From: Mobula hypostoma | Lineage: Eukaryota | Assembly (NCBI RefSeq): GCF_963921235.1 | Contig: NC_086097.1 | Coordinates: 103,728,001 to 103,792,000, forward strand | Direction of reading: 5' to 3' | Length of the DNA: 64,000 nt | Shown: positions 5,496 to 64,000 of the stretch, in pieces | Position numbering within the stretch: position 1 is the stretch's first letter | Layout: the number at the start of each line of letters is the position of its first letter | Notes under the pieces: model-generated | The model's input: the letters and a program-made list of their open reading frames with translations, nothing else | What the model was told of the DNA's origin: nothing | The model's database searches: none | Translations under genes and position numbers: made by a program

Positions 5496-5519
5496 ATGTT
5501 GAAACTGTTCACCCTTTCC

Positions 5520-8804: not shown

Positions 8805-9172
8805 GATCTGATAGAGATGAATAAAATGATGAGAGGCATTGATCATGTGATAGTCAGAGGCTTTTTCCCAGGGCTGGAATGGCTAGCACAAGAGGGCACA
8901 GTTTTAAGGTGCTTGAAAATAGGTACAGAGGAGATGTCAGGGGTAAGTTTTTTTATGCAGAGAGTGGTAAGTGCGTGGAATGGGCTGCCGGCGACGGTGG
9001 TGGAGGTGGATATGATGGGGTCTTTTAAGAGACCCCTGGACAGGTACATGGTGCTCAGAAAAATAGAGGGCTATGGGTAACCCTAGGTAATTTCTAAGGT
9101 AAGGACATATTCGGCACAGCTTTGTGGGCCAAAGGGCCTGCATTGTGCTGTAGATTTTCTATGTTTCTATGT
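8805..9172 (+). mobile_element. CR1 3' end fragment
   Basis: ORF 8817-9080 (QRVVSAWNGLP); ends in a TTCTATGT-type tail. Confidence 0.8.
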
Positions 9173-11639: not shown

Positions 11640-14403
11640 TCCAAGTCCTGAACAACATCATATAAAATTTCTGTATGTTCTATGAATATATCAGGAGACA
11701 GAGGATAATTAGTGAAAGAGTAGGATCGCTCAAAGATAAAGCTGGGGACATACGCTTTGGAGATGGAGGATGTGGGTGAGGTCCTAAGTGAGTATTTTGG
11801 ATTGGTATTTACAAAGGAGAAGGATGTGGAAGATACAGAGATCAGTGTGAAACATATTAATAGGCCAGAGAATTTTGAGAAAAAAAAGGATGCATCAAGT
11901 CTCTTAAAGAACATTGAGGTGGATAAAGTCCCAGGACCCAATGGGATATACCTCAGGTAATTGAGAGGCAAGAGATGAAATTACTCAGGCTTTGACCAAG
12001 ATCTTTGAGTCCTCCCTAGCCACAGGTATGGTGCTGGAGGACTGGTGAGTAGCTAATACTATATTATTAAATAAAGGAAATCGGGATAATCCTGGAAACC
12101 GCAGTGTTAGAGATATTCTTGGATATAGAATTTATAAGCTTTTGGAAAACCATGGCCCAATTAGGCAGAGTCAGAATGAATTCCTGCATAGCAAGTCATG
12201 ACTTAATACCTTTATTGGTTTTTCAAGGAAGTGACAAAGGTATTAATGAAGGTCAAGTTATAGATGGTGTGTACATGGATTTTAATAAAGAATTTGACGA
12301 GGTCACTCAGGGTCGGCTCATCCAGGTATCTACGGTGGCTTGGCTATTTGATTTCAGAATTGAATGTCCACAGAAGGCAGGGACTTTTTCTGGTTGGAGG
12401 TCCTTTACTAATGGTGTTCTGCAGGCACCTGAATTGGCACTCTGCTTTTCATTATCCATACCGGGATCTCTGCTGTTTGTGATACAAATTACCTCAATGA
12501 ATATGTGGATGGGTGGGTTTGTAAGTTTGCAGACAATACAAAGATTGGTGGTGCTATGGAGAGTGTTGAACATTACTAAAGATACATTTGCAAAAATAGC
12601 AGATAGACTTTAATCCAGTCAAATGTGAGGTGTTGCACTTCTGAAGTTCAAATGTAAACAGATGGTACACTGTTAACACTAAGACTATTATGGTACAGAA
12701 GGATCAGGGAAGAGGCTACGTAGCATCCACACCAGGTCCATCAGATTCAAAACAGTTATTTTGGCCAAGCAGTAAGGCTGATCAGCACCTCCACCCACTA
12801 ACCCATCCTACTACACCCCCCACCACCACTATTTTAGATCCACATCCAAAGCTCTCCCTCAAAGTGGCTATATACATTGATAGGATAGTGAAGAAAGCAT
12901 AATGGATGCTTGCCTTCATTAGTCAAGGAACTGAGTTCAAGAGTTGGGAATTAATGTTGTAGCTTTATGAAACTCTGGTTAGGACTCATCTGGAGTGTTA
13001 CATTCGATTCCGGTTGCTCCATTATAGGAAGGATGTGGAGGCTTTGAAGAGGGTGCAGAAGAGGTTTACCGGGATGCTATTGAGGACATGTGCTAAGACT
13101 GTTTAACGTTCAATGTCATTTCCAGTAAAGGAGAACAAAATAATTGTTATTCCAGATCCCATGAAGCACGAAAGATAAAGAACACAATACTATAATAAAA
13201 ACACAGCATAAGATAAATTGATACATAGGTTGATTGTAAGTGTATAAAGTGACACAAGACACAGGAGTGTCTGTACATTAGGTGACTGACAGGGAATGAT
13301 AAATTCGTGGTGGTAGGAGGAGTGAAGGAGTTTATCAACCTGATAGCCTACGTAGCCTCCTCCCTGATGGGAGTGGGACAACCAGTCCATGAGCAGGATG
13401 GGTGAGATCCTTCATGAAGTTACTGACCCCTTTCCAACATCTTTCTGTCTACGTCCTTGACGTCCGGCAAGCTATTGCTGGTGATGCGTTGGGCACTTTT
13501 GACTACCCGTTGTTGAGCCTTCCTCTCTGCCACAGTGCAGTTTCCGTGCCATGCAGTGATACAGCGGGTTAGAATGCTCTCTACCGCACATCTGTAGAAG
13601 GACGTGAGCATAGATGTGCATAAACCAGTTTTCTTCAGCCTCCAGAGAAAGCAGAGGTTTCCTGATTGTAAGCTTTCCTGATTGCGTTGTACTGCATGTG
13701 TTCTGGGACCATGAGAGGTTGGGCAAGGTGTGCACACTTTTGGCTGCTGTGCCGCTGATATAAAAGAGTGTGAGTGATGCAAGTTCTCTTGAAGTCAATA
13801 ACTGTCTCCTTTGTCTTGTTGACACTAAGGAAGAGGTCATTTTCCTGGCGTCAGGCCTTGAGCTCTTTCATATCCTCTCTGTAGGCCATTTCATGGTTGT
13901 TGGTGATGAGCCCCACCAGTGTCATGTCGTTTGCAAACCTGACAATGTGATTATAAGCAGAGGTTAGGCAAACTTGGTTTGTTTTCTCTGGAGCAGTAGA
14001 GGCTGTGGGGAGACTTAACGGAAGTTTATCAGATTATAAGGTATAAATAAGCAGCTGGCATCATTTACTCCAGGGCTGAAATGTCCATTGCTGAAGAGTA
14101 TGCATTTCTACTAGAGGGCATGCATTTAAGGTGAAAGTGGATATGCTCAAAGTTGATGTTTTTGCTTACAGTGAATGATGGATGCCTGGAATGTGCTGTC
14201 ATGGGCGGTGGTGGAGGCAAGTACAGTACAGCTGTTTAAGAGGCTCTTTAATCGGCACAGGAATGTGCAGAGAATTGAGCAATATGGAGAGTTTGTAGAC
14301 AGAAGGAATTAGTCAGTTAGGCATTTAATTTCTAATTTAATTAGTTTGGCACAACATCATGGGCTGAAGGGTCTGTTTCTGTGTTGTACTGCTCTATGTT
14401 CTA
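11640..14403 (+). mobile_element. Decayed CR1 LINE split by younger insertions
   Basis: EDVGEVLSEYF, VDKVPGPNGIY and VYMDFNKEFDEV motifs; the 3' end resumes after 13950 and ends ctctatgttcta. Confidence 0.7.
13100..13950 (-). mobile_element. Rex1/Babar LINE 3' fragment nested in CR1
   Basis: ORF 13420-13782 (FYRCAVESILTRCITAWHGNC). Confidence 0.8.
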
Positions 14404-14644
14404 AAATTGTACAATATATAACACACAAGATTGGTCTATTAACTACTGGACACATTATTTTATGAAAATATCTATATACTATAATCTGGATTTTTTACCT
14501 GTTGCATTCTTGATAAATGAGCCACCAATGTAAAGATTGAAGAGTTATTAAGCAGATCAAATTCCATTCCAAGCCAGCACTAATCTCAATCCTGTCAATT
14601 AAACTACTGCCATGTTGTTATGACAACCACCTTTCCTTTAACAT

Positions 14645-16164: not shown

Positions 16165-16503
16165 GTCATAGAGCACTACAGCACACAAGCAGGCCCTCTG
16201 GCCCATCTAAATGCCAAGTAATAATTCTTCCTAGCCACATTGACCTCACCTGGAACATAGCCCTTCATACCACTCCCTATCCATGATACTATCCCATTTC
16301 TCTGAATCGTTGAAATAAACCTGTATCCACCACTTCCACTGGCAGCTCATTCCACACTATCACCACCCACTGAGTGAAGCTCCCCCTCATGTTCCCTCAA
16401 AACATTTCACCTCCCATCCTTAACCCAAAATCTCTAGTTCTCGTCTACCACCTACTCCCATTGGGACCATAGCTCTCCATACCGCTTCTATCCATGTACC
16501 TAT
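16165..16503 (-). mobile_element. CR1 3'-end fragments; target of the LTR insertion
   Basis: Reverse complement of the CR1 3' UTR and of the final ORF2 codons. Confidence 0.65.
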
Positions 16504-16795
16504 TGTGACAAGAATACACATAGATTAAGATGTTAGCTGTCCTGTGGAATCAGCAGTTGGTCTGCCACCTGTCTTCAGGAGAGAGAGAGATAAGGAAAAC
16601 AATGGAGCAGCATGTGGAGATGTTAATGAAGGAAGGAGAGCTGTCAAGAGCAGCTCCCCCTTTGAACCTTGAACTGTTTGAAGTGATGGACAGGCGATAC
16701 CCCAGCAGGGGGATAAAAAGGGACAGGCAGGACACACATGACACCCGAGGTAACGAGACCCTGGAAGCAGTGCGCCTCTCACGAGTCGGTGGGAA
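16504..16795 (+). repeat. 5' LTR, truncated (distal LTR, PBS and gag start deleted)
   Basis: First ~220 bp match 19470 onward with 5 substitutions by eye; similarity ends near GTCGGTGGGA (~16793), where gag sequence starts directly. Confidence 0.85.
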
Positions 16796-18341
16796 ACTCC
16801 TCGAGCTGGATAAGTTAAAGATAAGGGCAGAGCAGGGGCTCGTGCCGAACCAAGGTGGAGGGTTCCGGGCAACCCAGGAGGTTAGGCTGGTTCCCCCATT
16901 TGACGATACCGATGTGGATCAGTACTTTCTCCACTTCGAAAAAGTGGCTATAAGTCAGGACTGGCCGAGGGATAAGTGGGTTGTTTTGCTTCAGAGTGTA
17001 CTGAAAGGGAAAACCCAACAAGCTTACTCAGCTTTGTCCGTGGAAGATGCCCAGAGGTATGAGGTGGTGAAAGAGGCCATCCTCAGGATTTATGAGTTGG
17101 TCCCGGAGGCATACTGGCAGAGGTTCCGGAATGCGAGGAAGCAGTGGGACCGCACGTATTTGGAGTTTGCCCGTGAGATGCAGACATATTGTGAGCATTG
17201 GTGCGCCTCAAAGGGGGTAGAGGGGGATTATGACAGACTGCTACAGCTGATCCTGATTGAGCAGTTTAAAGGTTGTGTCCCTGAGGGTATGAGACCCTAC
17301 CTCGATGAGAAAGAGGCAGACACGTTAGCCACAACTGCTAAGTTAGCGGATGAGTATGCGTTGACGCATAAAATGAAGTTTGCCCCGAGTAAAGGCTACA
17401 AGAAGGGTAGTCAGGACGGCGGGGAGAGTCCGCCGGAAAAGTCAGAAAGTAAGCCGGGGACTAGTGAGAAGGATAAGGTAGACCGGGAGCAGTCTGGTAG
17501 GAAGTCTCCTGGGATCGTCTGCTATAATTGCGGGAAAGTCGGACACTTTGCGTCCAGGTGCTTTGCCCCAAAGAAGGAGACGGGAAAAGGAAAAATGGCA
17601 ATTTTGACTGGCTGTATCGAGCTGGTACACGAATCGCTAGGGAAGGACAGGTCTGCCAAAGTTCAGGAAGGGTGCAAGAAGTTTATCTCGGCCGGATTGA
17701 TGTCAGTGAAGGAGGGGTTAAAACCAGTTCCAGTGCGGATCTGGAGAGACACAGGAGCGTGTCAGTCACTAATACTGAAGAGTGTATTAGAGTTTAGCTC
17801 AGAGACCCAGACTGGGGAGGTAGAGGTCAAAGGTGTTGGGGAAGGGACAGAGTCAGTCCCTTTACACCAGATACACTTACAAAGCAACCTGGTCTCTGGA
17901 CTAGTCACGATCGGGGTGAGGTCCGAATTACCGATGAAAGGCGTGGAAGTCTTGCTCGGTAATGACATCGCCGGGGGAATCGTGTTCCCAGTCGTGAGAT
18001 TGACAGGTCAGCCTGCCAGCACTGAGGCCCCGCCCATGGACTCACAGGTTCATCACGGGACCGCGGTAGTGAATTTAGCTGAGACGTTTCTGCCAGTGTT
18101 GTACGAGACGGGGGTAGAAAATGAAAAGAAGGAGTGTAGTGAGACAAGAGATAGTGAGGGAGCTGGGACAGACATAGCAGTAGCCAGGAAAGAATTTGTG
18201 CAGACGCAGGAGCGAGACGAGGGGCTGATGGTTTTGGCAGAGACAGCTCTCTCTGACACAGACTTAACAAGGGAACTAGTAGGCTATTGTGCGGAGGAGG
18301 AAGTGCTAAGGAAGAAAATCAAGTACAGTACCCGCAGATGA
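16530..18341 (+). CDS. gag: Retrotransposon Gag-protease ORF (SCAN-like capsid, CCHC zinc knuckle, aspartic protease) with an LTR-derived N-terminus
   Basis: 603-aa uninterrupted ORF with YELVPEAYWQRFR...LILIEQFK (SCAN-like), CYNCGKVGHFASRC (17520-17561) and WRDTGACQSL (DTG at 17748-17756). Confidence 0.85.
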   Translation: MLAVLWNQQLVCHLSSGEREIRKTMEQHVEMLMKEGELSRAAPPLNLELFEVMDRRYPSRGIKRDRQDTHDTRGNETLEAVRLSRVGGKLLELDKLKIRAEQGLVPNQGGGFRATQEVRLVPPFDDTDVDQYFLHFEKVAISQDWPRDKWVVLLQSVLKGKTQQAYSALSVEDAQRYEVVKEAILRIYELVPEAYWQRFRNARKQWDRTYLEFAREMQTYCEHWCASKGVEGDYDRLLQLILIEQFKGCVPEGMRPYLDEKEADTLATTAKLADEYALTHKMKFAPSKGYKKGSQDGGESPPEKSESKPGTSEKDKVDREQSGRKSPGIVCYNCGKVGHFASRCFAPKKETGKGKMAILTGCIELVHESLGKDRSAKVQEGCKKFISAGLMSVKEGLKPVPVRIWRDTGACQSLILKSVLEFSSETQTGEVEVKGVGEGTESVPLHQIHLQSNLVSGLVTIGVRSELPMKGVEVLLGNDIAGGIVFPVVRLTGQPASTEAPPMDSQVHHGTAVVNLAETFLPVLYETGVENEKKECSETRDSEGAGTDIAVARKEFVQTQERDEGLMVLAETALSDTDLTRELVGYCAEEEVLRKKIKYSTRR

Positions 18342-31923: not shown

Positions 31924-32913
31924 ATGCCAGGCAGGATGTTAGAATGCTCCTCTTGCAGGATGTGGGAAGTCAGGGAGCCCTCCGGTGTCCCTGACAACGA
32001 CACCTGCAAGAAGTGCATCCAGCTGCAGCTCCTAACAAACCGCGTTAGGGAACTGGAGCAGGAGCTGGATGACCTGCGGATCATTCGGGAGAATGAGGAG
32101 TTTATAGATAGTAGCTACAGGGAGGTAGTTACGCCAAAGGAGCAGAGGACAGGAAATTGGGTCACTGTCAGATGAGGGAAGAGGAAATGGCAGACAGAGC
32201 AGGGTTCCCCTGTGGCCATTCCCCTCAACAACAAGTATACCGCATTGGATACTGTTGGGGGGGATGACTTACCTGGGACAAGCTGCAGTAGCCGGATCTC
32301 TGGCACTGAGTCTGGCTCTGCAGTGCAGAAGGGAGGGTGGAAAAAGAGGAGAGCAGTAGTGATAGGGGACTCGATAGTTAGAGGTACAGATAGGAGGTTC
32401 TGTGGTCGTGACAGAGAATCCAGGATGGTTTGTTGCCTCCCGGGTGCCAGGGTCAAGGATGTCTCTGATCGATTGCATGACATTCTGAAGTGGGAGGGTG
32501 ATCAGCCAGATGTCATGGTGCATATCGGTACCAATGACATAGCAAGGAAGTGTGAGGAGGTCCTGGAGAGTGAGTATAGGGAGCTTGGTAGGAAGTTGAA
32601 AAGCAGGACCTCGAGGGTGGTAATCTCAGGATTGCTACCTGTGCTAGGTGCCAGTGAGGGTAAGAATAGGATGCTCTGGAGGATGAACAAGTGGCTGAGG
32701 AACTGGTGTAGGGGGCAGGGTTTCAGATTTCAGGATCATTGGGACCTCTTCTGGGGCAGGTGGGACCTGTACAAGAGATACGGGTTACACTTGAACTACA
32801 GGGGGACCAATATCCTTTCAGGGAGGTTTGTTAGTGCTGTTGGGGAGGCTTTAAACTGGATTTGCAGGGGGATGGGAACCAGAGTGCCAGAGCTGACAGT
32901 GTGGCTGGGGTGA
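31924..32913 (+). pseudogene. CR1 ORF1p: zinc finger and coiled coil plus SGNH esterase, one premature stop
   Basis: CSSC..CKKC, LTNRVRELEQELDDL, GDSIVR, HIGTNDI, GLHLN; ORFs 31897-32175 and 32212-32913 are in the same frame, separated by TGA at 32173-32175. Confidence 0.88.
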
Positions 32914-35784
32914 AAATAAATGATGTTAAAAGTTCAAGCAAATCCGCTAATAGAAAGGTTGTGAGTGGTGGTAAAAATCTTCTGAGGTGTATATATTTCA
33001 ATGCTAGGAGTATTGCGGGGAAGGCGGATGAGTTGAGGGCGTTGATTGACACGTGGAATTATGACGTTATAGCAATTAGTGAAACTTGGCTACAGGAGGG
33101 GCAGGACTGGCAGCTTAATATTCCAGGGTTCCGATGTTTCAATGTGATCGAGGCAGAGGCATGAAAGGCGGGGGAGTAGCATTGCTTGTTAGGGAAAATA
33201 TCACAGCAGTGCTCAAGCAGGACAGATTAGAGGGCTTGTCTACTGAGTCCTTATGGGTGGAGCTGAGAAACAGGAAAGGTATGGCCACATTAGTGGGATT
33301 GTATTACAGACCACCCAATAGTCAACGAGAATTGGAAGAGCAAATCTGCAGAGAGATAGCAGGCAACTGCAGGAAACATAAAGTTGTGGTGGTAGGGGAT
33401 TTTAATTTTCTATATATTGATTGGGACTCCCATACTGTTAGGGGTCTAGATGGTTTACAGTTTGTAAAATGTGTTCAGGAAAGTTTTCTAAATCAATATA
33501 TAGAGGGACCAGCTAGAGGGGATGCAATATTGGTTCTCCTATTAGGAAACGAGTTAGAACAAGTGACGGAAGTCTGTGTAGGGGAGCACTTTGGTTCCAG
33601 TGATCATAACACCATTAGTTTCAACTTGATCATGGACAAGGATAGATCTGGTCCTAGGGTTGAGGTTCTTAACTGGAAGAAGGTCAAATTTGAAGAAATG
33701 AGAAAGGATCTAAAAAGCGTGGATTGGGACAGGTTGTTCTCTGGCAGGGATGTGATCGGTAGGTGGGAAGCCTTCAAAGCAGAAATTTTGAGAGTGCAGA
33801 ATTTGTATGTTCCTGTCAGGATTAAAGGCAAGGTGAATAGGAATAAGGAACCTTGGTTCTCAAGGGATATTGCAACTCTGATAAAGAAGAAGAGGGAGTT
33901 GTATGACATGTATAGGAAGCAGGGAGTAAATAAGGTGCTTGAGGAGTATAAGAAGTGCAAGAAAATACTTAAAGAAATCAGGAGGGCTAAAAGAGGACAT
34001 GACGTTGCCTTGGCAGTCAAAGTGAAGGATAATCCAAAGAGCTTTTACAGGTATATTAAGAACAAAAGGATTGTAAAGGATAAAATTGGTCCTCTTGAAG
34101 ATCAGAGTGGTCGGCTATGTGCGGAACCAAAGGAAATGGGGGCGATTTTAAATAGGTTTTTTGCATCTGTATTTACTAAGGAAACTGGCATGAAGTCTAT
34201 GGAATTAAGGGAAACAAGTAGTGAGATCATGGAAACTGTACAGATCGAAAAGGAGGTGGTCCTTGCTGTCTTGAGGAAAATTAAAGTGGATAAATCCCTG
34301 GGACCTGCCAGGGTGTTCCCTCGGACCTTGAAGGAGACTAGTGTTGAAATTGCAGGGGCCCTGGCAGAAATATTTAAAATGTCGCTGTCTGCAGGTGAGG
34401 TGCCGGAGGATTGGAGAGTGGCTCATGTTGTTCCGTTGTTTAAAAAAGGATCGAAAAGTAATCCAGGAAATTACAGGCCAGTAAGTTTAACGTCAGTAGT
34501 AGGTAAGTTATTGGAGGGAGTACTAAGAGACAGAAGCTACAAGCGTTTGGATAGACAGGGACTTATTAGGGAGAGTCAACATGGCTTTGTGCGTGGTAGG
34601 TCATGTTTGACCAATCTATTGGAGTTTTTCGAGGAGGTTACCAGGAAAGTGGATGAAGGTAAGGCAGTGGATATTGTCTACATGGACTTCAGTAAGGCCT
34701 TTGACAAGGTCCCGCATGGGAGGTTAGTTAGGAAAATTCAGTCACTAGGTATACATGGAGAGGTGGTAAATTGGATCAGACATTGGCTCGATGGAAGAAG
34801 CCAAAGAGTGGTAGTAGAGAATTGCTTCTCCTAGTGAAGGCCTGTGACTACTGGTGTGCCACAGGGATCAGTGCTGGGTCCATTGTTATTTGTCATCTAT
34901 ATCAATATCTGGATGATAATGTGGTAAATTGGATCAGCAAATTTGCTGATGATACAAAGATTGGAGGTGTAGTAGACAGTGAGGAAGGTTTTCAGAGCCT
35001 GCAGAGGGACTTGGACCAGCTGGAAAAATGGGCTGAAAAATGGCAGATGGAGTTTAATACAGACAAGTGTGAGGTATTGCACATTGGAAGGACAAACCAA
35101 GGTAGAACATACAGGGTTAATGGTAAGGCACTGAAGAGTGCAGTGGAACAGAGGGATCTGGGAATACAGATACAAAATTCCCTAAAAGTAGCATCACAGG
35201 TAGATAGGGTTGTAAAGAGAGCTTTTGGTACACTGGCCTTTATTAATCAAAGTATTGAGTATAAGAGCTGGAATGTTATGATGAGGTTGTATAAGGCATT
35301 GGTGAGGCCAAATCTGGAGTATCGTGTTCAGTTTTGGTCACCAAAAACAGGAAGGATATTAATAAGGTTAAAAGAGTGCAGAGAAGGTTTACAAGGATGT
35401 TGCTGGGACTTGAGAAACTCAGCTACAGAGAAGGGTTGAATAGGTTAGGACTTTATTCCCTGGAGCGTAGAAGAATGAGGGGAGATTTGATAGAGGTATA
35501 TAAAATTATGATGGGTATAGATAGAGTGAATGCAAGCAGGCTTTTTCCACTGAGGCAAGGGGAGAAAAAAAACCAGAGGACATGGGTTAAGGGTGAGGGG
35601 GGAAAAGTTTAAAGGGAACATTGGGGGGGGCTTCTTCACACAGAGAGTGGTGGGAGTATGGAATGAGCTGCCAGACGAGGTGGTAAATGCGGGTTCTTTT
35701 TTAACATTTAAGAATAAATTGGACAGATACATGGATGGGAGGTGTATGGAGGGATATGGTCCGTGTGCAGGTGAGTGGGACTAG
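32850..35784 (+). pseudogene. CR1 ORF2p: APE endonuclease and reverse transcriptase, with several frameshifts and stops
   Basis: YFNARS, ISETWL, VGDFN, SDHN, YMDFSKAFDKVPH, GVPQGSVLGP, KFADDTK; breaks near 33140, 34832-34837, 34905, 35345 and 35570. Confidence 0.9.
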
Positions 35785-37339
35785 GCAGAAAATGGTTCGG
35801 CACAGCCAAGAAGGGCCAAAGGGCCTGTTTCTGTGCTGTAGTTTCTATGGTTTCTAAAAAGACCAATATCCAATGTGCAAGGAAAGAGAAAAAACACAAA
35901 TCAGGCAAACATTAGAAGCAAGCACCAGCATTGCGAACCACATTGAGTCTATAGATCCTGAATCCCCAGAACAGCCCAAAGCCTCGGTCTCAATTCATCA
36001 TACAGCGGGGCAAATCGCTGGGAAGCTCGCAGACACAAAGCTCATAACGGCAGCAGCAGCCTCAGCGTCGCGGCGGGAGGAGAGAACAAATGAAATCGGC
36101 CTGACTCTCACCTCTGGTGCCAACACCCTGCCCTTCCAGTCTATCTGGGCTGTTGTTAAAATTGTCCAAACACCAGATCATGCGTTGCATCAAGACCTGG
36201 GCCCCGCTGCAGCAAAACGCTCCAGGCGTAAACCTTGCCACTCAGTGATTTGCTCTGGGCATTGACCTCACCGCCTAGCCCAAGGCCACTTTTGACCTCT
36301 CCAAATTAGCTCAGCACATAGAGCAATTCAACCTCAGACCCGGTTTAGGTGGACTGGCATCAAAACTCCTCTGCCTTGACAGTGATACCATCTCCATCTG
36401 TGACCCCATCTCGAGCATGTCACACTCGGATTTTGCAACACACCAGCACGGCTCATCCCTCGAGTCAGCTTCACCTCCACCCGCCTCTTCATTGTTTGCA
36501 GTGATAGTTTACCACTCCTTACTTCACAAAAGATGTTATTAATGATGTTTATAGTTGTATTTCTTGACCTTTGAACTACCAGTAACCTGTCGCTGAACTT
36601 CAGTAGTGTCATCTTAAAGCAGATGTGACATGTGATAACTGCAATTCCAATTCTCAAACAATATAGGATTTATTGTTCACAACTGAATAGTCTCACAGAA
36701 GTAAAAAAAAAAATTATTTAAGTTCTCTGAGAAATTTAAATAATTGTTTCAAAATACTTAAAAAATGTTTTTTGGGATATAATTGTTTTCTTTCAAAGGG
36801 GACCAAAGGAAAACTTAACAGAAGCTTCAAGTACAAATGGCCTTGACACGATGAATGAGAACTTGGCAGAAAAGTAATTAAATTCATGACCTAGGTTTCA
36901 GGGTAAGCAATAGAAGGATTACAGAGAGTTGAGAAACTATGATTTCACTGAATAAACAGATGAGCAGTGGAAGTCTCTCCCTAAAATCAGGATGTGGAGA
37001 AGGTCCTGTGAATCCTCAGGTCACTTAAAACGTGAATGACCACAATCAAGTTGTACATTGGGCACTAGAAATTAAATCTGAGTGAAAAGATTTTTATTAT
37101 GGGCAGCAGATTCACCAATAGCCAATTTACTAACAATTAAATGCTATTAATGTGTTGTTACTATTGTATTCAAAGTAGTACAATAGTGATACTCATTAAA
37201 AGTGAAAAGGGCCAGTCAAGTCATCCTGCACACCTGAGATCAAGAGGAGTCATTGGCAAGTTCCTTGTGGGAGTGATATTTGAAAAAGAAAACAGTGCCT
37301 GTTGGATCCTGCACGCCTCAGACCACAGGGTAATTAGGC

Positions 37340-37869: not shown

Positions 37870-38420
37870 GCAAGGGCCAATAAAAAGAAGCCAGGTTTAA
37901 GCAGAGTGGCCTATGTTAGATTGGAGGTATTGAGATTTTGTCCCAAAGAGGCAGAGGCAATGTGTCTGTTAGTGCAGAGTACATAGAGAGTGCAGTGAGA
38001 AAGGGCCCCGGAGTCAGTGGCATCTTCTTCATACCAGATATGTAAATTCTAGGAGACCACTAGTCTCCCTGATAATATCTGCATGAGGTTCATCCAGATG
38101 CAGCTCCTTCTAGATCATTTTAGAGAACTGGAGCTACAGCTGGATGACCTACAGCTCATATGACAGAACAAGGAAGAGACAGATAAGATCTAATGGGAGC
38201 CAGTCATGCCAAGTTGCAAGAGGCAGGCAGCTGGGTGACTGCAGAGTACCACTTTCGCTGGTCCCCTCAATAACAAGTATATCACTTTGGATACTGTTGG
38301 GGGAATGATCTATCAGGGAAAAGCTGCAGCAACCAGATCTCTGGCACTGAGTCTGGCTCTGTGGTTCAGCAGGGAAGTGGGGGGAAGAAGACTGCAATAC
38401 CTGTAGGGGCTTCAACAGAT
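37870..38420 (+). mobile_element. Decayed CR1 ORF1 fragment
   Basis: Matches 31940-32380 (gaactggagctacagctggatgacct, cccctcaataacaagtatatcactttggatactgttggggg). Confidence 0.75.
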
Positions 38421-39219
38421 AGAGGATCTTGAAGCACCCATTTAGACTGCAAATCTTGAAGCTGTCAGAGACAAGATGAAAGGTTTCACCAGGACATTGT
38501 GGTCATGGAGAAACTGTATCAGGGCAACTGGAATCCATCAATGCTGGCTGATTATTGCTGGACACCTAAGTAAGAAGCTTCAGATACAGAGTACAAATAA
38601 GACTTATCAACAAAACATTATCTTAGGTGAACTATTGCAAAGCATGGGCACCCTTTTGCAATTAAACATACAGTATTATATTCAGTGAAAGTTAATTTCT
38701 TGTTTCTCAAAATTATTTTTGTGCTCAGCTTCAAGCGATCTATCATAAACAAAAAAATAAGGAAGCAACACTTTTGAAAAAATTTATTGTCCAGTATTTG
38801 AATGGCATCTGAATCTAAAGCCACTTTAGCAAAATGGTGAGGTTCTTCAGTGAGGGACTCGAGTGTGAAGTCTGCCAATAGTCTATTATCTCAGCTGTGT
38901 ACAAATTGCAGATACTGTAATAATCAATCTTACACTAATATTAGCAAGTTAAAACTATGATTATATATTTATAGGAGACATTTAGCTTCATTATTAGGAA
39001 ATGACTTCATCATACTATTAAGAGTTAAATTCTACATTGTAGTCTGGGATTTAAGTTAGCAATTTTCAACGCTTCCGTTCTTTCCTATTCAAAACATCCT
39101 GAAAAACAAAGGTTTATAAAATTGAAGAGGAAGAAAGAGAACAATAACAATCATGTCCAACATATGAGTCGTTAGAATGAGCTGCTCGACACCAGATTTT
39201 TGTACACTTTACACTACAC

Positions 39220-40320: not shown

Positions 40321-41891
40321 CTTTCTCACCGGTGCTGAGCCCTCTGGCTCCCCTTCCTCCATCACTACTCCCCAACTCTGGGTCTCTCAGACATCCTTGT
40401 CACTTCTTGGACCACTTGGGCCTCAGAGCTTTCATCTTCTTTCCACTCTACTGTCCCTGAACAACCCCAACCCCCTCTTCTCTCTTGATGCCTCCAGCTC
40501 TCCAACCACCACCCCCCCCCCCGATTCCAACTCTAATCCCTGCCATTTATTCACCATTCCCTCTGAGCTTACCTTCTGTGAGACAGAACATTCTGTCCGC
40601 AGCTAGGGCCTTCCTCTCATCCCCCTTCGCTAACACCTCAGCGAGATCCATGCCTTCCAGGATATCGGGCTCTTATTCTGTCACCTTCAGCTCAGAGCCC
40701 ATTTATTTGGCAAGAATTCACCAGTTTAAACTATAAAGTACATTAGCAACCTTGAAATTCATCTCTTTACAGGCAGCCACAAAACAAAGAAACCCAAAAG
40801 AACCCATTTAAAGATGACCGTCAAATACCCAAATGTACAGAAAAACAATTGTGCAAACAACAAAAGCCAGCAAACAACTGAAGTTCACGAAAGTGAGTCC
40901 TCTCTCCTCTTCAAGCTTTACCCCTTCTGAACCCACTCCTCTCCAATCCCAACCTCACCTGCAGGTAAAGGGAGTTACTGTTGTCGTCTGACAGACTGAG
41001 CTCTACCTTGTTGAGGCAGGTGGCAACTCTCAGACCATTTTACTTACCCCTTGAAAAGGACCCCACTCAGGACCATTACACCATTGTCTCCTGCACCATC
41101 ACCCTCAGTTCCCTTACCCACACTGCTCGTTTGTACCTCCTATCCAAGATGCCCAAACCTGACTGTCTGGATAGGTCCATTGTTTCTGCCCGCTCCTGCC
41201 CAACTGAACTCTGGTCCACATACCTCAACTCCATTCTATATCTCCCCATCTATATCTACAACACTTCACATGCCCTGGATCTCAACAACTTTCAATTCTC
41301 TGGCGTGATCGCCTCATTTTCACCATGCATGTCCAGTTCCTATACACTTCTATCCCCCATCAAAGCCTTAAAGTACTTTCTCAACAATAGGCCAGTTTCC
41401 CTCCACCACCACCCTCTTCCATCTGGTGGAACTGGTCTTCATACTCAACAATATCTCTTTCAGTTCCTCCCATTTTCCCCAAGCTCAAGGTGTAGCTATG
41501 GGCACCATAATGGGCCCCAGCTCCTGCTTTTCACTGGCTATGTGGAACAGTCTATGTTTCAAGCCTTCCCTGGGAATACTCCCCAACTCTTTCTGTGAGA
41601 CATTGATGACTGCACTGCTGTACATGCAGCTAAATGAGCTCGCCGATTTCATCAACTTTGTCTCTAACTTCCACCCTGCCCTTGGTTCATTACTGACACC
41701 TCTCACCTTTCTCGATATCTGTCTCTAATTTTGTACACAAACTGCATCTCTGTCCCTTTTATATAACAACAAATTTCATGATATATGCCAGTGATATTAA
41801 ACTGGTTCTGAAACCTACGACTTCCACGGCTATCTTGACTATACTTCTTCCCATCCTATCTCTTGTATATAAAAAAACACCAATTCCTTTT

Positions 41892-45668: not shown

Positions 45669-48614
45669 CAGCTAATGTTTCTCACATTCCCTTTAAACCA
45701 ACCAGAGGCCCCACCCCTACACTTACTCCAAACTTAAGGTTCAATGGAAAATTTATTGGTAACACTATATAACATCTAAACAAAGAAAAAACTGTGATGG
45801 TGTATTCCTAACACCCAACAGTCTTGAAACTTATCAATCCATTACCTATGTCCCCAGCACACAGAATATTATTCTTTTACCTATATAACAGAACTGGGCT
45901 ATCAACATGGATTTCCAAGAGAAAAACAATTGTGACAAATCTCATTGAGGTTCTAAATAATGGAAGTGCAAAGAGAGCCAATTAACCAAATCTTATCTTT
46001 CAGACTACCTTCAAGAACAAGAAACTGTTCAATAAAATTAAGAGCACAGAGAAATGGGGGTGATATATTAATGTGGGTTGAGCCTTAACATAAAATATAA
46101 CAAGAATACAAGAATCATTTTGAGATCGAGAGGTATTGACTAAAGGGGTGCCACATTAGTCAGGGCTGGTACACAAGCTAAATCAATGATTTGATTGAGA
46201 GGGTCAAGAGTAATCGATCCAAGTTTGCTGATGACACAAGGTTGAGTGGCAGTGTGAGCACTGAAGAGTGTCTTTGAAATCTCATTACTATGCCCACCTG
46301 ATACTTTCTTTTTCCCCTGAGAACTCCTTCAATGGCACATGGATTAAAGAAAAATGAAGGGCAATGTGGGAAGGAAGGATTAGACTGATCTTGGAGTAGC
46401 TTAAAAGATCGGCACAACATAATGAGCTGAAAATTTTCTGTGTATGCATCATCCTCTGCATGAAGTTACTTCTCATATCCCTTCTCACCTTAAACCTATG
46501 ACCTGTAGTTTTTGATTCCCTTTCTCCAAAAAAAACCTGCGTACATTCACCCCTTCTATGCCTTATGTTATAAACACCTCTTTAAGTTCACTACTTGGTT
46601 ACCCACACACCAAGAAATGAAGTGCTAGCCTATCAACCTCTCACTATAACTCAGGCCCTCAATTGGCAATACATATTATTTCCAGTTTTATTACATCTTT
46701 CTTATAACAGGCTGTGAAGAGGTATTAGGGAAAATGAATGGGCTAAGTGACTGGGCAACACGAAGCAGACAGAAGATTATGTGGAAAAGTGTGCTGCTAC
46801 ACGAAGCATTAAGGAACAGAAGCCTGGGTGAATAACAATATTTTTAGGATTGTGAAGAACAATCTGATCAGGTAGGTAATGTGAATCCTTGATATAAAAA
46901 AGGCAGAGCATTGAAAGGCACATGTATTCAGAGGGACAGTATTTCACTGAAGTTAATGTGCAAGTACAGCATGCAATCAAAAGAAAGTTTATTTGAAGAG
47001 TAGATAGTGAAACTCACAAGTTACAATCTTGCAGAGACTAGTGCCAGACACAGAAATTGATTCCTGATCATCTGAGCAGCAGAACTGTTCTTTTTAAGTA
47101 CAGACACTTCCCCCAAGTCATCAGTGTTCCAAGAAAGGTCTATAACTTGAAGTTCCCCAAATCAAAAACCCTGCCAGCTGAGGAGCCAAAAATTGCACTG
47201 GTAGATTAATTACCGACAGACTAGTACAGATCTTAGTTAGATGATAGTATTAATTAGATTGTGCACATCTATGAGCTTCAACATGTACTGGATTGGATTC
47301 CCTTCCCTACTTGAGATAGAGAAAATGCAATGAGATTCACCAGATTGTTTCCTGCATTGACAGGTTTGTGTCTGGTAAGAGATAAGCAAACGGATCCATA
47401 TTCTCCAGAGCTCGGGGAACCAGAGATGACCACATTGAACCGTACTAAATTGACAGTATGGACGCACAAAAATTATGTTTCCCATGGTTACAAAACGTGG
47501 CTCAGTCTTTCAAAACTGAGACTAAAAAAACTTTCTTCCATCCAAAGAATAGCAAATCTTTGGAATTCTCACCCTTGAAGACTATATATTTAAAACTCTC
47601 AATAAATTCTGATGATCAATAAATTATGAGGTATTCAGTGAACATGGGGTGAGTGCAGGAAGGAGCAAAGGTGAAGAATCCACCCTAATGTTAAACAGAA
47701 GGACAAGGACTGAAGGCCCAAATGGACTGTGTCTGCTGCTGCAACCTGTGTGATGATAATAAACCGACCTTGATGATCTTGTGCCAAACCAGATGCCACA
47801 CATACAATTATGTCAACTGTGTGAATCATGTAAGAGGGTTCTTTTGCTTCAAAATGGAATGACCACAGTAAGAAAAGCAGCTTTGTCAAACACAAGTATG
47901 AATTTTTAATAAAGGTTGTAAATAAATTTCCTAGTACATTAGCATTCCAAGCATGCATAAACACTCAATCACCACAAACTCAAACACCTGTGATCTGCAT
48001 ACCTGACATGACAATACAAAAGCATGGAAAATGAAAGTACTGGTATTCCAGACCTGTGGAGAAAATTCTGCCTTCTGGAAAGTTCAAGATTTTTTTCCTT
48101 TTACTGTCAAAATGAGCCAATGTTCGGATTTTTGGAGAGAAAAAATATAGGCTATTCTGAAGTCTCAGGGGCAAATCCTCAGCTATTATACAGCTGTTCA
48201 CAGTTGTCCAGTCATAAATTGCAGAAATGGTGGTTTGAAAATTCCAACTGCAACTGGCCCATTTAAATGAAAAGGCTATGTTACTGGCATAGGGACAGTG
48301 GGATAAATTACATCATCTCCTCCCACCCCCCAAAAAAAATTAATATTTCTGAATCCCCCATGTGCTTTCACCAGATTTTTTTTTAATATATAAACATCCA
48401 TAGTCAGTCAGCAGACAAAACAGATATTATATTGCAAATCAATGAGAATGAACCAGCTTGTAAAGAAATTAATGCAGGCTTGCAAATATTTCGCCAGCTA
48501 AGCGTAGTATTCACATTCCACACCCACACAGATTGAACTTTCCTCATCTTAAATTCTTATAAAGCAGCCTCTTTTTCCTTGCATTTTATGCAACGACATT
48601 TCAGATTTTGCAGA

Positions 48615-50826
48615 GGGAAGGGTCACAACCAGGTAACTTGGTACATATTGGTACCAATGACATAGGAAGGAAAAGCAAAGGAGGTCTTGAAAAGAGAATT
48701 TAGAGAGCTAGGTAGAAAGCTGAGAAACCGGATCTCTTGGGCAGTAACCTCTGGATTGCTGCCTGTGCCACATGCCAGTGAGGGTAGAAACAGGATGATT
48801 TGGCAAATAAATGCGTGGCTGAGAAGCTGGTGCAGGGGGCAGGGCTTCAGGTTCTTGGATCGTTGGGATCTCTTCTGGGGAGGTATGACCTGTTCAAAAG
48901 GAATGGGTTGCACCTGCCCGAGGGGATCAATATTCTTGCGGGCAGGTTTGTTAGAGCTGTTGGGGAGGGTTTAAACTAATTTGGCATGGGTGGTGAGAAC
49001 CAGAGTGAAGGGACTCAGATTAGGGCAGATGGTAAAAAAGCAAAGATAAAGTGCAGTCAGACAGTCATGAAAAACAGGCAGATGATATGGCATAATTGCA
49101 GCCAGCAGAGTGAGTACCAGCGCATTAGGGATACAAAATCAAAAACGGTACCAAGTGCAGCACTCAAAGTGTTATATCTCAATGCACAGAGTATAAGAAA
49201 TAAGGTGGATGATCTTATTACACTATTACAGATAATCAAGTATGATGCTGTCGCCATCAATGAATCATGGCTGAAGGATGGTTGTAGTTGGGAGCTCAAT
49301 GTCCAAGGTTACATGTTGTATCAGAGGGATAGGAAGGTCGGCAGAAGGGGTGGTGTGGGTCTGCTTGTAAAGAATGGCATCAAATCAGTAGAAAGATATG
49401 ACAGGATCAGAAGATGTTGAACCCTTCTGGGTCAAGTTAAGAAACTAATGTAAAAGGACCCTGATAGCAGTTATATACAGGCCTCCAAACAGTGGCTGGG
49501 AGGTGGACCACAGATTACACAGAAAATAGAAAAGGCCTGCCAAAAGGGCAATGTTGTGATAGTCATGGGAAATTTTAACATGCATGTCGATTGGGAAAAT
49601 CAGGTTGGTAATGGATCTCAAAAGAGTGAGTTTGTTGAATGTCTAAGAGGTGACTTTTTAAGACCAGTTTGTTGTTGAGCCGACTAGAGGATCAGCTATA
49701 CTGATTGGCTATAATTGGCTATACTGTAATGAACCAGAGGTGATTAGGGAGCTTAAGGTAAAAGAACCCTTAGGAACCAGGGAGCACAATATGATTGAGT
49801 TTAACTTGAAATTTGATAGGGAGAAAGTAAAGTCTGATGTAGCAGTATTTCAGTGGAGTAAGGGAAATTATAGTGGTAAGAGAGAGGAGTTGATCAAAGT
49901 AAATTGGAAGGAGCTGCTGGCTGAGATGTCAACAGAGCAGCAATGGTGTGCATTTCTGGGAGAAATGAGGAAGGTGCAGGACATGTGTTTTCCAAAAATG
50001 AAGAAATACTCAAATGGCAAAATATTACAACTGTGGCTGACAAGGGAAGTCAAAGCTAATGTAAAAACAAAAGAGAGGGTATATAACAAAGGAAAAATTT
50101 GTGGGAAGAGGACGATTTGGAAGTTCATAAAAACCTACATATAGCAGCTAAAAGAATCATTAGAAGGGAAAAGATGAAATATGAAAGCAAGCTAACAAAT
50201 AATATCGAAGTGGATAGTAAAAGCTGTTTCAAGTATGTTAAAAAATAAAAGATGAGAGTGAATATAGGACTGCTAGAAAATAAGGCAGGTGAAAATGAAA
50301 CGGGACAAGGAGATGGCAGAAGAACTAAATGAGTATTTTGCAGACACAAGGATGTTTCCAGGAATGAAAGGGAACGTTTCACAAGGAACATTTGATGGTT
50401 CTGGGTCTGTACTCACTGGAATTTAGGATGAGAGGGAATCTCATTGAAAGCTTTTGAATGCTGAAAGGCCTAGACAGAGTAGATGTGGAAAGGATGTTTC
50501 CCATGGTGGGAGAGTCTAGGACAAGAGGGAACAGCCTCAGGATACAGGAGCATCCATTCAAAACGGAGATGCAGAGAAATTTCTTTGGCCAGAGGGCGGA
50601 GAATTGATGGAATTTGTTGCCTCGTGCAGTCATAGAGGCCAGGTCATTGGGTGTATTTAAGGCAGAGATTGGTAGGTTCTTGTTTGGACATGGCATCAAA
50701 GGTTACAGGGAGAAGGCCAGGAAATGAGGCTGAGGAGAAAAATAAAGGATCAGCCATGATTGCGTGGTGAAGCAGACTCAATGAGCCAAATGGCCCAATT
50801 CTGCTCTGATGTCTTATGGTCCTGTG
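48615..50826 (+). mobile_element. CR1 LINE: ORF1 end, APE region, large internal deletion, 3' end
   Basis: HIGTNDI and WLRSWCRGQGFRFLDRW; LYLNAQSIRNK; sequence jumps near 50345 from the ELNEYFA region to the 3' end. Confidence 0.82.
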
Positions 50827-50829
50827 GTC

Positions 50830-53545
50830 TAATTTGAAAAGGTGTGTCAAAAGAGCAATGTATGATAGTCATGGGAGATTTCAACATGCAGTTCGATTGG
50901 GAAAGATCAGGTTGGAAATAGATCTCAAGAGTGAGTTTTTTGAATGCCTACGGGATGGCTTTTCAGAACAGTTTGTCATTGAGCCCACTAAGGGATCATC
51001 TATACTGGATTGGACATTATGTAATGAACTGGAGGTGATTTGGAAGCTTGAGGTAAAAGAACCCTTAGGAGACAATGATCACAATATGATTGAGTTCAAC
51101 TTGAAACTTGACAGGGACAAAGTGTGATGTAGTAGTATTTCAGTGGAGTAAAGGAAATTACGGTGGTATGAGAGAAGATTTGGCCAACGTAAACTGGAAG
51201 GAGCTGCAGGCAGGGATGACAGCAGAGAAGCAATGGTGTGAGCTTCTAGGAAAAACGAGGAAGATGCAGAATAGATGTATTCCAAAAATGAATACCCAAA
51301 TGGCAAAGTGGCTGACAACGAAAGTCAAAGCTAATGTAAAAGCAAAAGAGAGGGCATACAACAAAGCAAAAATTAGTGGGAAGGTAGAGGATTGGGAAAG
51401 TTTTAAAAACCTACAGAAAACAACCAAAAAATGATGGGGAGGGAAAAAATGAAAGCAAGCAATATCAAAGTGGATAGTAAAAGCTTTTTCAAGTACATAA
51501 AAAGAGATCAGAGTGGATACAGGACCACTAGAAAATGAAGCCAGAGAAATAATAACGGGGGACAAGGAGATGGCATATGAACTAAATGAGTATTTTGCAT
51601 CAGTCTTCACTGTGGAAGACACTAGCAGTGTGCGAGATGCTGAAGGGTGTGAGGGAAGAGAAGTGTGCGCCATTACTATTACAAGGGTGAAGGTGCTCAA
51701 AAAGCTGAAAGACCCAAGGGTACGTAAGTCACCCAGACAAGGTGAACTGCAGCCTGGGGTTCTGAAAGAGGTAGCGGTAGGGACTGTGGGAGCACTAGTA
51801 ATGATCTTTCAAAGATCATTGGACTCTGGCATGGTGCCAGAGGACTGGAAAATTGCAAATGTCACTCCACTCTTTTAAAGAATGGAGGAAGGCAGCAGAA
51901 AAGAAAATATAGACCAGTTACCCTGACTTCAGTGGTTAGGAAGATACTGGAGTCAATTGTTAAGGAGGTGGTTATGGCGTACTTCGTGACACAGGACAAG
52001 ATTGGACAAAGTCAGCATGGTTTCCTTAAAGGAAAACTATGCCAGATGAACTTTGTTGGAATTCTTTGAGAAGATTATACATAGCATAGATAAAGGGATG
52101 CAGTAGGCCTTTAACAAGGTGCCATGCATAAGGCTGCTTACCAAGGTGCAGAGCCCATGGCGTTATAGGAAAGTTACTGGCATGGTTAGAGCATTGGCTG
52201 ATTGGCAAGAGGCAGGAATGGGAATAAAAGGATCCTTTTCTGTTTGAAAGGGGTGGTGTTGGGACCACTTCCTTTTATGCTGTATATCAATAAGTTAGAT
52301 GATGGAATAGATGGCTTTGTTGCCAAGTTTTTGGATGAGATTGGTGGAGGGGCAGGTAGTGTTGAGGAAACAGGAAGGCTGCAGAATGATTTAAACAGAT
52401 TGGGCAAGAGAGAGGCAAATAGAACATAGAATAGTACAGCACAGTACAGGCCCTTCGGCCCACAATGTTGTGTCGACCCTCAAACCCTGCCTCCCATATA
52501 AGCCCCCACCTTAGATTCCTCCATATACCTGTCTAGTAGTCTCTTAAACTTCACTTGTGTATCTGCCTCCACCACTGACTCAGGCAGTGCATTCCACGCA
52601 CCAACCACTCTCTGAGTAAAAAAACTTCCTCTAATATCCCCCTTGAACTTCCCACCTCTTACCTTAAAGCCATGTATTGAGCAGTGGTGCCCTGGGGAAG
52701 AGGCGCTGGATATCCACTCTATCTATTCCTCTTATTATCTTGAAATACAATGTTGGAAAATACATCAACATGCATTTTGGTAGTACAAATAAATGTGCAG
52801 ACTATTTCTAAATGGGGAGAAAATCCAAAACTCTGTGATGCAAGGGGACTTGGGAGTCCTTGTGCAGCACACCCTAAAGGTTAACTTGCATATAGAGTCA
52901 GTGGTGAGGAAGACAAATGCAATGTTAGCATTCATTTCAAGAGGTCTAGAATACAAGAGCAGGGATGTGATGCTGAAGCTTAATGAGGCACTGTTGAGGC
53001 CTCACCTTGAGTATTGTGAACAGTTTTGGGCCCCTAATCTTAGAAAAGATGTGCTGGCATTGGAGAGGGTTCAGAGGAGGCTCACAAGGGAATAAAAAGG
53101 GTTATCATACAAGGAACATTTGATAGCTCTGGGTCTGCACTCACTGGAATTTAGAAGGATAAGGGGGGACCTCGTTGAAACCTTTCGAATGTTGAATGGC
53201 CTAAACAGAGTAGATGTGCAAAGAATGTTTCCAATGGTGGGAGAGTCTAGGACAAGAGGACACAGCCTCAGGATAGAGGGTGTCCATTTAAAACAGAGAT
53301 GCAGAGAAATTTCTTTAGCCAGAGGCTGGTGTATTTGTGGAATTCATTACCCCAGGCAGCTGTGCAGGCCAAGTCATCGGGTGTATTTAAGGCAGAGATA
53401 GATAACTTCTTGACTGGACATAGCATCAGAGATTATGGGGAGAAGGCCGGGGAGTGGGGCGGAGGAGGGGATCAGTCATGATGGAATGGTGGAGCAGACT
53501 CAATGAGCCAAATGGCCCAACTCTGCTCCTATGTCCTATGGTCTT
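50830..53545 (+). mobile_element. CR1 LINE (APE to 3' UTR) containing an inverted CR1 3' fragment at ~52423-52742
   Basis: EPLGDNDHNMIEF, ELNEYFASVFT, VPEDWKIANV and LLRPHLEYCEQFW motifs. Confidence 0.85.
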
Positions 53546-63715: not shown

Positions 63716-64000
63716 AATAGCTGGCACATTTCTTCTTCTTTATTCCTTGTCTGTTACGGTGCAGTTAGTGCAGTGAGAATGGCTCTTGGAGTTTTGTTCT
63801 GTATGAGATGCTGGGATTCTGGGAGACCTCCAGGTGCATCAAGCTTCAGCTCCTCAGAGAACATGTTAAGGAACTGGTGCTGCAGCTTGATGATCTTTGG
63901 CTCATATGGGAGACCGAGAAAGTGATAGCTAGGAGCTCAGGTGAAGTAGTCACCCAGAAGTTTCAGGAGACAGGTAACTGGGTGACTATCAGGAAAAGGA
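63716..64000 (+). mobile_element. Decayed CR1 5'/ORF1 region, host of the Tc1 insertion
   Basis: Similar to 31940-32180 (gaactggtgctgcagcttgatgatct, ggtaactgggtgactatcagg). Confidence 0.6.

Follow-up and report, generated by a model that had tools for sequence, protein, structure and literature searches.

We found that the ORF1–ORF2 junction of a vertebrate CR1 retrotransposon carries the slippery heptamer U_UUA_AAC as the last seven nucleotides of ORF1, that this heptamer recurs in CR1 elements from sharks to birds and is kept at the nucleotide level, and that the frame encoding the endonuclease is open from it in the −1 phase. Comparison of the junctions makes it probable that CR1 ORF2 (endonuclease and reverse transcriptase) is made by programmed −1 frameshifting, as an ORF1–ORF2 fusion. 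A sequence-only reading of the same DNA had suggested such a gag-pol-like arrangement, and the comparative evidence supports it: the heptamer shows no synonymous change and there is no AUG at a conserved place. We regard the junction as a real, deeply conserved candidate recoding signal, with an unusual 3′ element that appears to be free of structure.

The element lies in a stretch of 64,000 nucleotides of Mobula hypostoma DNA (the window). Open reading frames and domain matches place a decayed CR1-type LINE, with ORF1 and ORF2, at 31924 to about 35860 (Table 1). Its ORF1 encodes an SGNH esterase and sits upstream of an ORF2 with APE endonuclease and reverse transcriptase (RT); ORF1 matched Pfam Lipase_GDSL_2 (E 4.8e-13) and the profile of PDB entry 4C1B, ‘ORF1-encoded protein’ (E 3.6e-40). 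The best named homologues of ORF1 are from Mobula, Hemitrygon, Pristis and Hypanus, with 64–67% identity. From this layout, and from near-identical junctions in published shark and ray CR1 consensuses, we assigned the element to the CR1 LINEs with an esterase ORF1. The window copy is dead, because an internal TGA at 32173–32175 breaks ORF1 and because ORF2 is broken near 33141, within the endonuclease frame, and again at 34832. The question of ORF2 expression therefore concerns the family.

Table 1. Features of the CR1 junction and its surroundings, in positions of the window.
Feature	Position	Strand	Remarks
CR1 ORF1, ends ...GEALN	31924..32859	+	N-terminal Cys motif and coiled-coil-like part, then SGNH esterase
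TAG closing the −1 (ORF2) frame, 15 nt 5′ of the heptamer	32832..32834	+	ATG absent from the interval between TAG and heptamer
Slippery heptamer U_UUA_AAC, final 7 nt of ORF1	32850..32856	+	Present at 12 of 12 junctions
AUG-free, stop-free −1 linker from heptamer to endonuclease, 46 codons	32850..32987	+	0 stops versus 4 and 7 in the other frames
ORF1 stop place	32857..32859	+	TGG in the window copy; TAG in about 98% of family sequence
10-nt spacer from heptamer to G run, includes the stop place	32857..32866	+	
GGGGG (+11 to +15), then a less conserved second G tract	32867..32876	+	Candidate 3′ stimulator
APE endonuclease start, −1 frame (CIYFNARS ... SETW)	32988..33140	+	Aligns with the start of the Pfam Exo_endo_phos match of P0331
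Remaining ORF2 (APE, reverse transcriptase), decayed	33119..35780 (3′ limit approximate)	+	Stop at 34832–34834, more frame breaks
Second, diverged CR1 junction, GGT TTA AAC TAA	48970..48979	+	Altered G run; endonuclease frame out of −1 phase as the copy stands

At the end of ORF1 the codons read GCT TTA AAC, which bears out the X_XXY_YYZ phase that the sequence-only reading had assigned to TTTAAAC. The other details it had given of the window junction were also correct. The −1 frame is open from 32835 to 33161 and contains no ATG; it reads FKLDLQGDGNQ...CIYFNARS and so runs into the endonuclease. All four ATGs between 32800 and 33010 (at 32872, 32920, 32923 and 33001) are in the ORF1 frame, and the codon at 32862–32864, where a start might have been placed, is TTG. 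The G-rich tract behind the heptamer is GGGGGATGGG at 32867–32876. Since the CIYFNARS stretch aligns with the first residues of a relative's Pfam match, a start at a later AUG would clip the endonuclease domain. TTTAAAC occurs 21 times on the two strands of the window, so that a single heptamer is within chance; what exceeds chance is its conservation at the ORF1 end. A second TTTAAACTGG, at 40721–40730 on the minus strand, was taken as a chance occurrence, and a self-search of the window showed no match there to this CR1.

The codon after the heptamer differs between the window copy and its family. In contigs of three public runs, A at 32858 accounted for 503787 of 512201 (X1), 1134489 of 1162463 (X4) and 3381 of 3463 (X12) depth units; a further run, X21, contributed only 2 reads to the family comparison. 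Because about 98% of family sequence thus has TAG here, the TGG of the window is a private change, by which its ORF1 frame extends to 32913. Among the 40 of 141 family differences listed, none fell on a heptamer position or at 32862, though minor variants are possible. The family signal is heptamer plus stop, U_UUA_AAC_UAG, with the heptamer adjoining the ORF1 stop. That the family codon after AAC is the ORF1 stop had been overlooked in the earlier reading.

Metagenomes were scanned with the CLPGA motif, which gave 34 loci; as this motif lies about 430 nt upstream of the junction, the scan was blind to the junction itself. No junction was found at 24 loci (the locus ends earlier, or no ORF1 end was detected), and the 10 that reach it comprise one fish-type and nine bird-type elements, classed by likeness to named proteins. 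With both window copies this gave 12 DNA junctions, nine of them bird-type and related, three of which come from one sample. The sequence-only reading had proposed that aligned junctions be compared for heptamer and phase, and had held that free synonymous variation in the heptamer would speak against frameshifting. TTTAAAC was present in all 12 junctions, with its phase read directly in 10, and a stop directly 3′ of it was seen in 10 of the 12. Nine ORF1 ends could be aligned over their last 60 codons, and across them the heptamer showed no synonymous variation. Of the 59 ungapped codon columns, no more than 5 have an unvarying third base: a Trp column, an Arg/Lys column and the columns of the three heptamer codons. 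Synonymous change is seen in each of the five remaining degenerate columns whose residue is invariant (Asn, Leu, Cys, Phe, Leu). Outside the heptamer, 13 of the 151 leucines of the aligned ORF1s have TTA, the least used Leu codon. Just ahead of the TTA of the heptamer stands a codon for Ala, His, Cys or Ser, which ends in T in every one of the nine. The heptamer is therefore kept at the nucleotide level beyond what the protein needs.

Published consensuses were searched in the supplement of PMC13343379, over the first 400 letters of each. The heptamer followed by TA, a query that selects for the motif itself, gave 23 matches, by eye 16 CR1 junctions, 1 junction-like Crack element and 6 matches elsewhere. 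According to the row prefixes, the hosts of the 16 CR1 junctions are alligator, crocodile, bowfin, bullfrog, chimaera, stingray, coelacanth, sawfish, catshark and dogfish. A second search of the same supplement, made on upstream esterase words, gave six rows with the junction in view, and all six have the heptamer. Viral contigs, also scanned by motif, yielded 38 matches.

The ends of ORF1 proteins were examined as well. The final catalytic motif is seen in 53 of 107 close homologues, and 48 of these full-ended proteins end in LN; in a wider set the LN end was found in 109 of 158. Among the named hosts of the homologues are rays, sharks, frogs, crane, turtle and lizard. Twelve different residues occur before LN, and E, K, Q, M or W, whose codons never end in T, is found there in 2 of 109 proteins, compared with 46 and 32 of 109 at two neighbouring positions; since several other helix positions are also low (0–5 of 109), this depletion is supporting and not decisive alone. 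When the set was thinned to 47 representatives, 17 ended in LN, 7 in GN and 1 in KN. None of the five representatives of a five-member fish clade with the same esterase fold, which we take to be L2-like, ends in N, and the fold can thus do without LN. In a distant group of GN-ending ORF1s, the residue before GN is Gln in 19 of 24 and is never one barred from a G-ending codon. This group would fit G_GGA_AAC, a prediction from protein sequence in which the LINE identity of the group is itself putative. A Fisher test of the GN/LN contrast was set aside, as its rows are related. No relatives of ORF1 were found in scans of viral and prokaryote contigs; a further scan yielded 5 bacterial SGNH hydrolases, which were left out.

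We then compared the ORF2 frame across junctions. In 10 of the 12 junctions a stop closes the −1 frame 3–15 nt before the heptamer, and in the other two the closing stop lies 111 nt upstream; an upstream ATG was found in none. Where the endonuclease start is in view, it is in −1 phase with the heptamer in 8 of 10 junctions, and in 7 the frame is fully open from heptamer to motif. Locus L005 is in phase but has a stop two codons short of the endonuclease motif; the junctions out of −1 phase are that at 48970 in the window and L022, both in decayed copies. The L005 stop and these two junctions count against frameshifting. The linkers vary in sequence and in length (33, 37, 48, 51, 88 and 93 codons), yet hold phase. 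A combined stop-free probability of the linkers was set aside, the copies being related and the L005 linker having been scored to 90 codons, which ends just before its stop.

In four of the eight in-phase junctions (L002, L003, L004 and L008) codon 4 is the first in-frame ATG; in L011 it is codon 22 and in L005 codon 89, and the window element and L001 have none. The statement that ORF2 has no AUG, made earlier for the window copy, thus holds for that element and L001 and fails elsewhere, as six of the eight carry an in-frame ATG before the endonuclease motif. A conserved in-frame AUG upstream of the APE domain had been named as an observation that would contradict frameshifting, and these eight junctions have no AUG at a conserved place. 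The codon at the place where translation might restart is ATG, GTG, TTG, TCG, TGG, AGG or TCC, depending on the element. TAATG is found in 3 of the 16 published junction consensuses, all from sharks (ScyCan_CR1-1a, SquAca_CR1-17a and SquAca_CR1-6c). A search for longer forms (48 matches) gave no full ORF1–ORF2 protein in a single frame. Two Hypanus gene models, P0330 and P0331, which lead from the esterase through FKL..QG to the APE motif, were read as decayed copies that have an open −1 frame but represent no natural fusion.

A stem-loop, pseudoknot or G-quadruplex (G4) would be expected behind the heptamer, but our analysis did not support one. Folding z-scores of the junctions range from −2.3 to +1.6, the window copy folds worse than its own shuffles (z +1.2), and the consensus fold of 10 junction sequences contains 0 pairs. 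In L001 the 60 nt downstream reach only −1.7 kcal/mol, in calculations that do not model pseudoknots directly. A long-range duplex scan found no partner at a shared place, and Rfam gave 0 matches. Local, consensus and long-range folding thus revealed no stem-loop or pseudoknot 5–9 nt 3′ of the heptamer. The set of four G tracts that a G4 at 6–8 nt downstream would need was likewise not found; a two-tier G4 is predicted in 2 of 11 folded junctions (L002 and L014), not in the window element.

The downstream region does contain a linear G run. GGGGG (G5) starts exactly 10 nt 3′ of the heptamer in 10 of the 11 genomic junctions with enough sequence (L007, where its place is out of view, was excluded) and is missing in the second window copy, while G5 runs start at about 0.4% of nearby positions (38/8875). 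The spacing in the 16 published consensuses, judged by eye, is 10 nt in five and 9, 9, 6 and 3 nt in four, and the run is short, broken or absent in seven; these rows are noisy and visibly miss columns, yet they limit the claim for G5. The run covers NNG-GGG-GNN of the −1 frame, and since the first residue varies (Gln, Lys, Arg), G5 looks constrained at the nucleotide level.

Frameshifting has to be weighed above all against its main rival, termination–reinitiation, in which ribosomes would restart near the ORF1 stop in the −1 frame, at AUG or another codon, and make free ORF2p, with the heptamer and G run acting as cis signals for the restart. The ATG 2 nt past the stop in four of the eight in-phase junctions and the TAATG of the three shark consensuses suit this account and speak against frameshifting, and it also explains the open, in-phase linker. 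Precedents are at hand: in SART1, UAAUG acts together with a downstream element, and reinitiation has been proposed for L1 (PMC5972666), where the first AUG of ORF2 can be replaced by any sense codon (PMC1965478). However, the variety of codons at the restart place means that no start is conserved, even if restart at non-AUG codons is possible, and reinitiation leaves unexplained an invariant, correctly phased heptamer containing the rarest Leu codon. We judge reinitiation unlikely, although the two mechanisms could each operate in different CR1 families.

The signal might also have nothing to do with decoding. The palindromic TTTAAA and a G tract resemble parts of a promoter, and their fixed spacing would suit a DNA-binding complex as well; the junction could be an internal promoter, in which TTTAAA is a TATA-like box beside a G-rich factor site, or it could hold a splice acceptor (CTAG) for a separate ORF2 mRNA. 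Neither accounts for a heptamer in exact phase at the ORF1 stop, or for a −1 frame that is open from the heptamer when AUG is absent (window element, L001) or comes after 89 codons (L005). Splicing is further opposed by TAA variants, which lack AG, by the purine-rich upstream sequence and by the absence of GT..AG ends among the 15 joints listed (156 others). We consider a promoter or splice site very improbable. Still less probable is that the heptamer is a by-product of protein constraint or shared ancestry, with Leu-Asn required at the end of the esterase. It is true that LN closes the final helix of the domain and that the elements sampled are related to one another, but synonymous change at every other residue-invariant degenerate column, with none in the heptamer codons, largely refutes this explanation, and relatives of the same fold have other ends. 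The persistence of G5 across NNG-GGG-GNN despite a changing first residue is likewise at odds with it.

Programmed −1 frameshifting in CR1 would resemble known systems in part. U_UUA_AAC is among the most shift-prone eukaryotic heptamers, and the viral and retroviral cases (IBV, which uses U_UUA_AAC; gag-pol; 1a/1b) share with CR1 the heptamer and its phase, a polymerase in the −1 frame and, as proposed for CR1, a structural protein made in excess, according to the part of the review PMC5009743 covered here. CR1, in contrast, is a non-LTR retrotransposon and lacks a stem-loop or pseudoknot 5–9 nt downstream. A parallel for the 3′ element is the −2/−1 frameshift in PRRSV nsp2, which is stimulated by nsp1beta and PCBP with no RNA structure and has a wild-type spacer of 10 nt, 9–11 nt being effective (PMC4937337, in part). 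Its short, linear, low-complexity motif at 10-nt spacing has a counterpart in 10 of 11 genomic CR1 junctions, but in 5 of the 16 published consensuses. The PRRSV motif, however, is C-rich (CCCANCUCC), its slip site is GG_GUU_UUU and it directs both −2 and −1 shifts, whereas the CR1 motif is G5 and a trans factor is only postulated. G-rich RNA engineered to form a G-quadruplex behind UUUAAAC stimulates −1 shifts to about 7% at best (PMC3919603, in part); this requires four G tracts and works best at 6–8 nt, while the genomic CR1 junctions have a single G5 at 10 nt, invariant in 10 of 11.

Among LINEs, the nearest statement concerns the Dictyostelium APE-type non-LTR elements TRE5-A and TRE3-A, for which a −1 frameshift is said to be needed for ORF2 (PMC5911963, in part). 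They differ from CR1 in clade, host and ORF1, and the passage gives no heptamer, stimulator or assay. A +1 shift or readthrough has been suggested for Paramecium LINEs (PMC5405496, in part). Mammalian L1 and silkworm SART1 resemble CR1 in having a bicistronic LINE RNA from which little ORF2p must be made; they differ in being described as using termination–reinitiation, which gives a separate ORF2p, across a 63-nt spacer in L1 and a UAAUG overlap in SART1 (PMC5972666, in part).

We envisage that most ribosomes would decode ...Leu-Asn and then the stop, releasing free ORF1p. A minority, holding UUA in the P site and AAC in the A site, would slip by −1, bypass the stop and continue into ORF2, giving the ORF1–ORF2 fusion in gag-pol fashion. 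The pause would most likely come from the linear G5 10 nt downstream, either bound by a protein or folded in an unpredicted way, and the adjacent stop codon may aid it. Rous sarcoma virus also has a stop directly behind its slippery heptamer. What the junctions show directly is the sequence, its phase and conservation, the open −1 frame and the lack of a common local fold; from these we infer that ribosomes slip, that a fusion results, how much of it is made and what G5 does. By analogy with PRRSV, a broader reading may be entertained tentatively, and with more doubt than confidence: a protein-stimulated −1 frameshift may have been kept in vertebrate CR1 since before the shark–bird split, a G-tract-binding factor, of the host or ORF1p itself, may sit 10 nt behind U_UUA_AAC and the stop and set the ratio of ORF1p to fusion, in a G-rich mirror image of the C-rich PRRSV signal, and distant esterase LINEs may follow the same logic with G_GGA_AAC and A_AAA_AAC.

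No report of frameshifting in CR1 was found in the literature searched, which did not extend to the CR1 papers of 1997–2003, where the overlap may be mentioned. By term search, the parts available of a 2026 survey of vertebrate CR1-group elements (PMC13343379) do not mention frameshift, overlap, start codon or translation, and those of PMC4316615, PMC4120745 and PMC3905857 do not mention frameshift. In the first 300,000 of the 449,034 characters of the review PMC5009743, ‘non-LTR’ occurs in a single passage, on the telomeric elements of Drosophila.

[quoted passage not shown] Most work on the translation of LINE ORF2 has dealt with L1 and SART1, for which reinitiation is the model. If CR1 indeed uses frameshifting, a fused ORF1–ORF2 protein would alter the annotation of ORF2 (its start and length) and the counting of intact copies. 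The junction would then be a recoding signal of roughly 30 nt, directly testable and seemingly structure-free, of a class so far known from a few viruses. Should the more tentative, protein-stimulated reading also be true, frameshifting and not reinitiation would be ancestral for RT expression in this LINE group, and would provide a switch that the host might control.

The diverged second CR1 copy in the window carries the candidate −1 slippery heptamer TTTAAAC at the end of ORF1, which encodes an SGNH esterase. As this copy stands, its endonuclease frame is the ORF1 frame itself, resumed past the stop, and an in-frame ATG lies three codons beyond that stop. The arrangement is probably explained by a one-base indel in a decayed element; less probably, the copy may represent a variant that uses readthrough or reinitiation.

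CR1-related and neighbouring features of the window
Feature	Position	Strand	Remarks
Inverted CR1 ORF2 pair	2983-6218		minus-strand piece adjoins plus-strand piece at about 5500
605-codon open frame	16524-18338	+	SCAN and CCHC zinc-knuckle domains
CR1 3′ end	35795-35857	+	short GGCC inverted repeat, TTTCTA(TGG) tail
CR1 ORF1 fragment	38052-38430	+	stops short of junction
Second CR1, diverged	48602-52241	+	same heptamer, then TAA
CR1 ORF1 fragment	63832-63993	+	stops short of junction

In the inverted pair, the minus-strand piece begins at the endonuclease motif. Ends resembling the CR1 3′ end were found near 9110-9169, 14344-14406, 16167-16427 and 31240. Judging by its domains, the 605-codon frame may be a gag-like gene of a retroelement that carries SCAN, a family label that is inferred.

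Among the published consensus rows of vertebrate CR1-group elements (PMC13343379 supplement), AldAff_Crack-2 has an esterase-like stretch followed by the heptamer and TAG. Read by eye, it lacks the GGGGG run (10 nt downstream of the heptamer), a candidate 3′ stimulator, and has a −1-frame ATG shortly downstream.

One protein in the ORF1 comparison, P0013, is a shark-type CR1 ORF1 (66% identity) whose database entry names it an SGNH hydrolase of Pseudomonas aeruginosa, an assignment that probably stems from a contaminated assembly. Seven distant esterase ORF1s (P0195, P0275, P0199, P0280, P0284, P0208 and P0223) have GF, FF or KN dipeptides near the C-terminus; these ends, known from protein alone, could conceal G_GGU_UUU, U_UUU_UUN or A_AAA_AAC heptamers.
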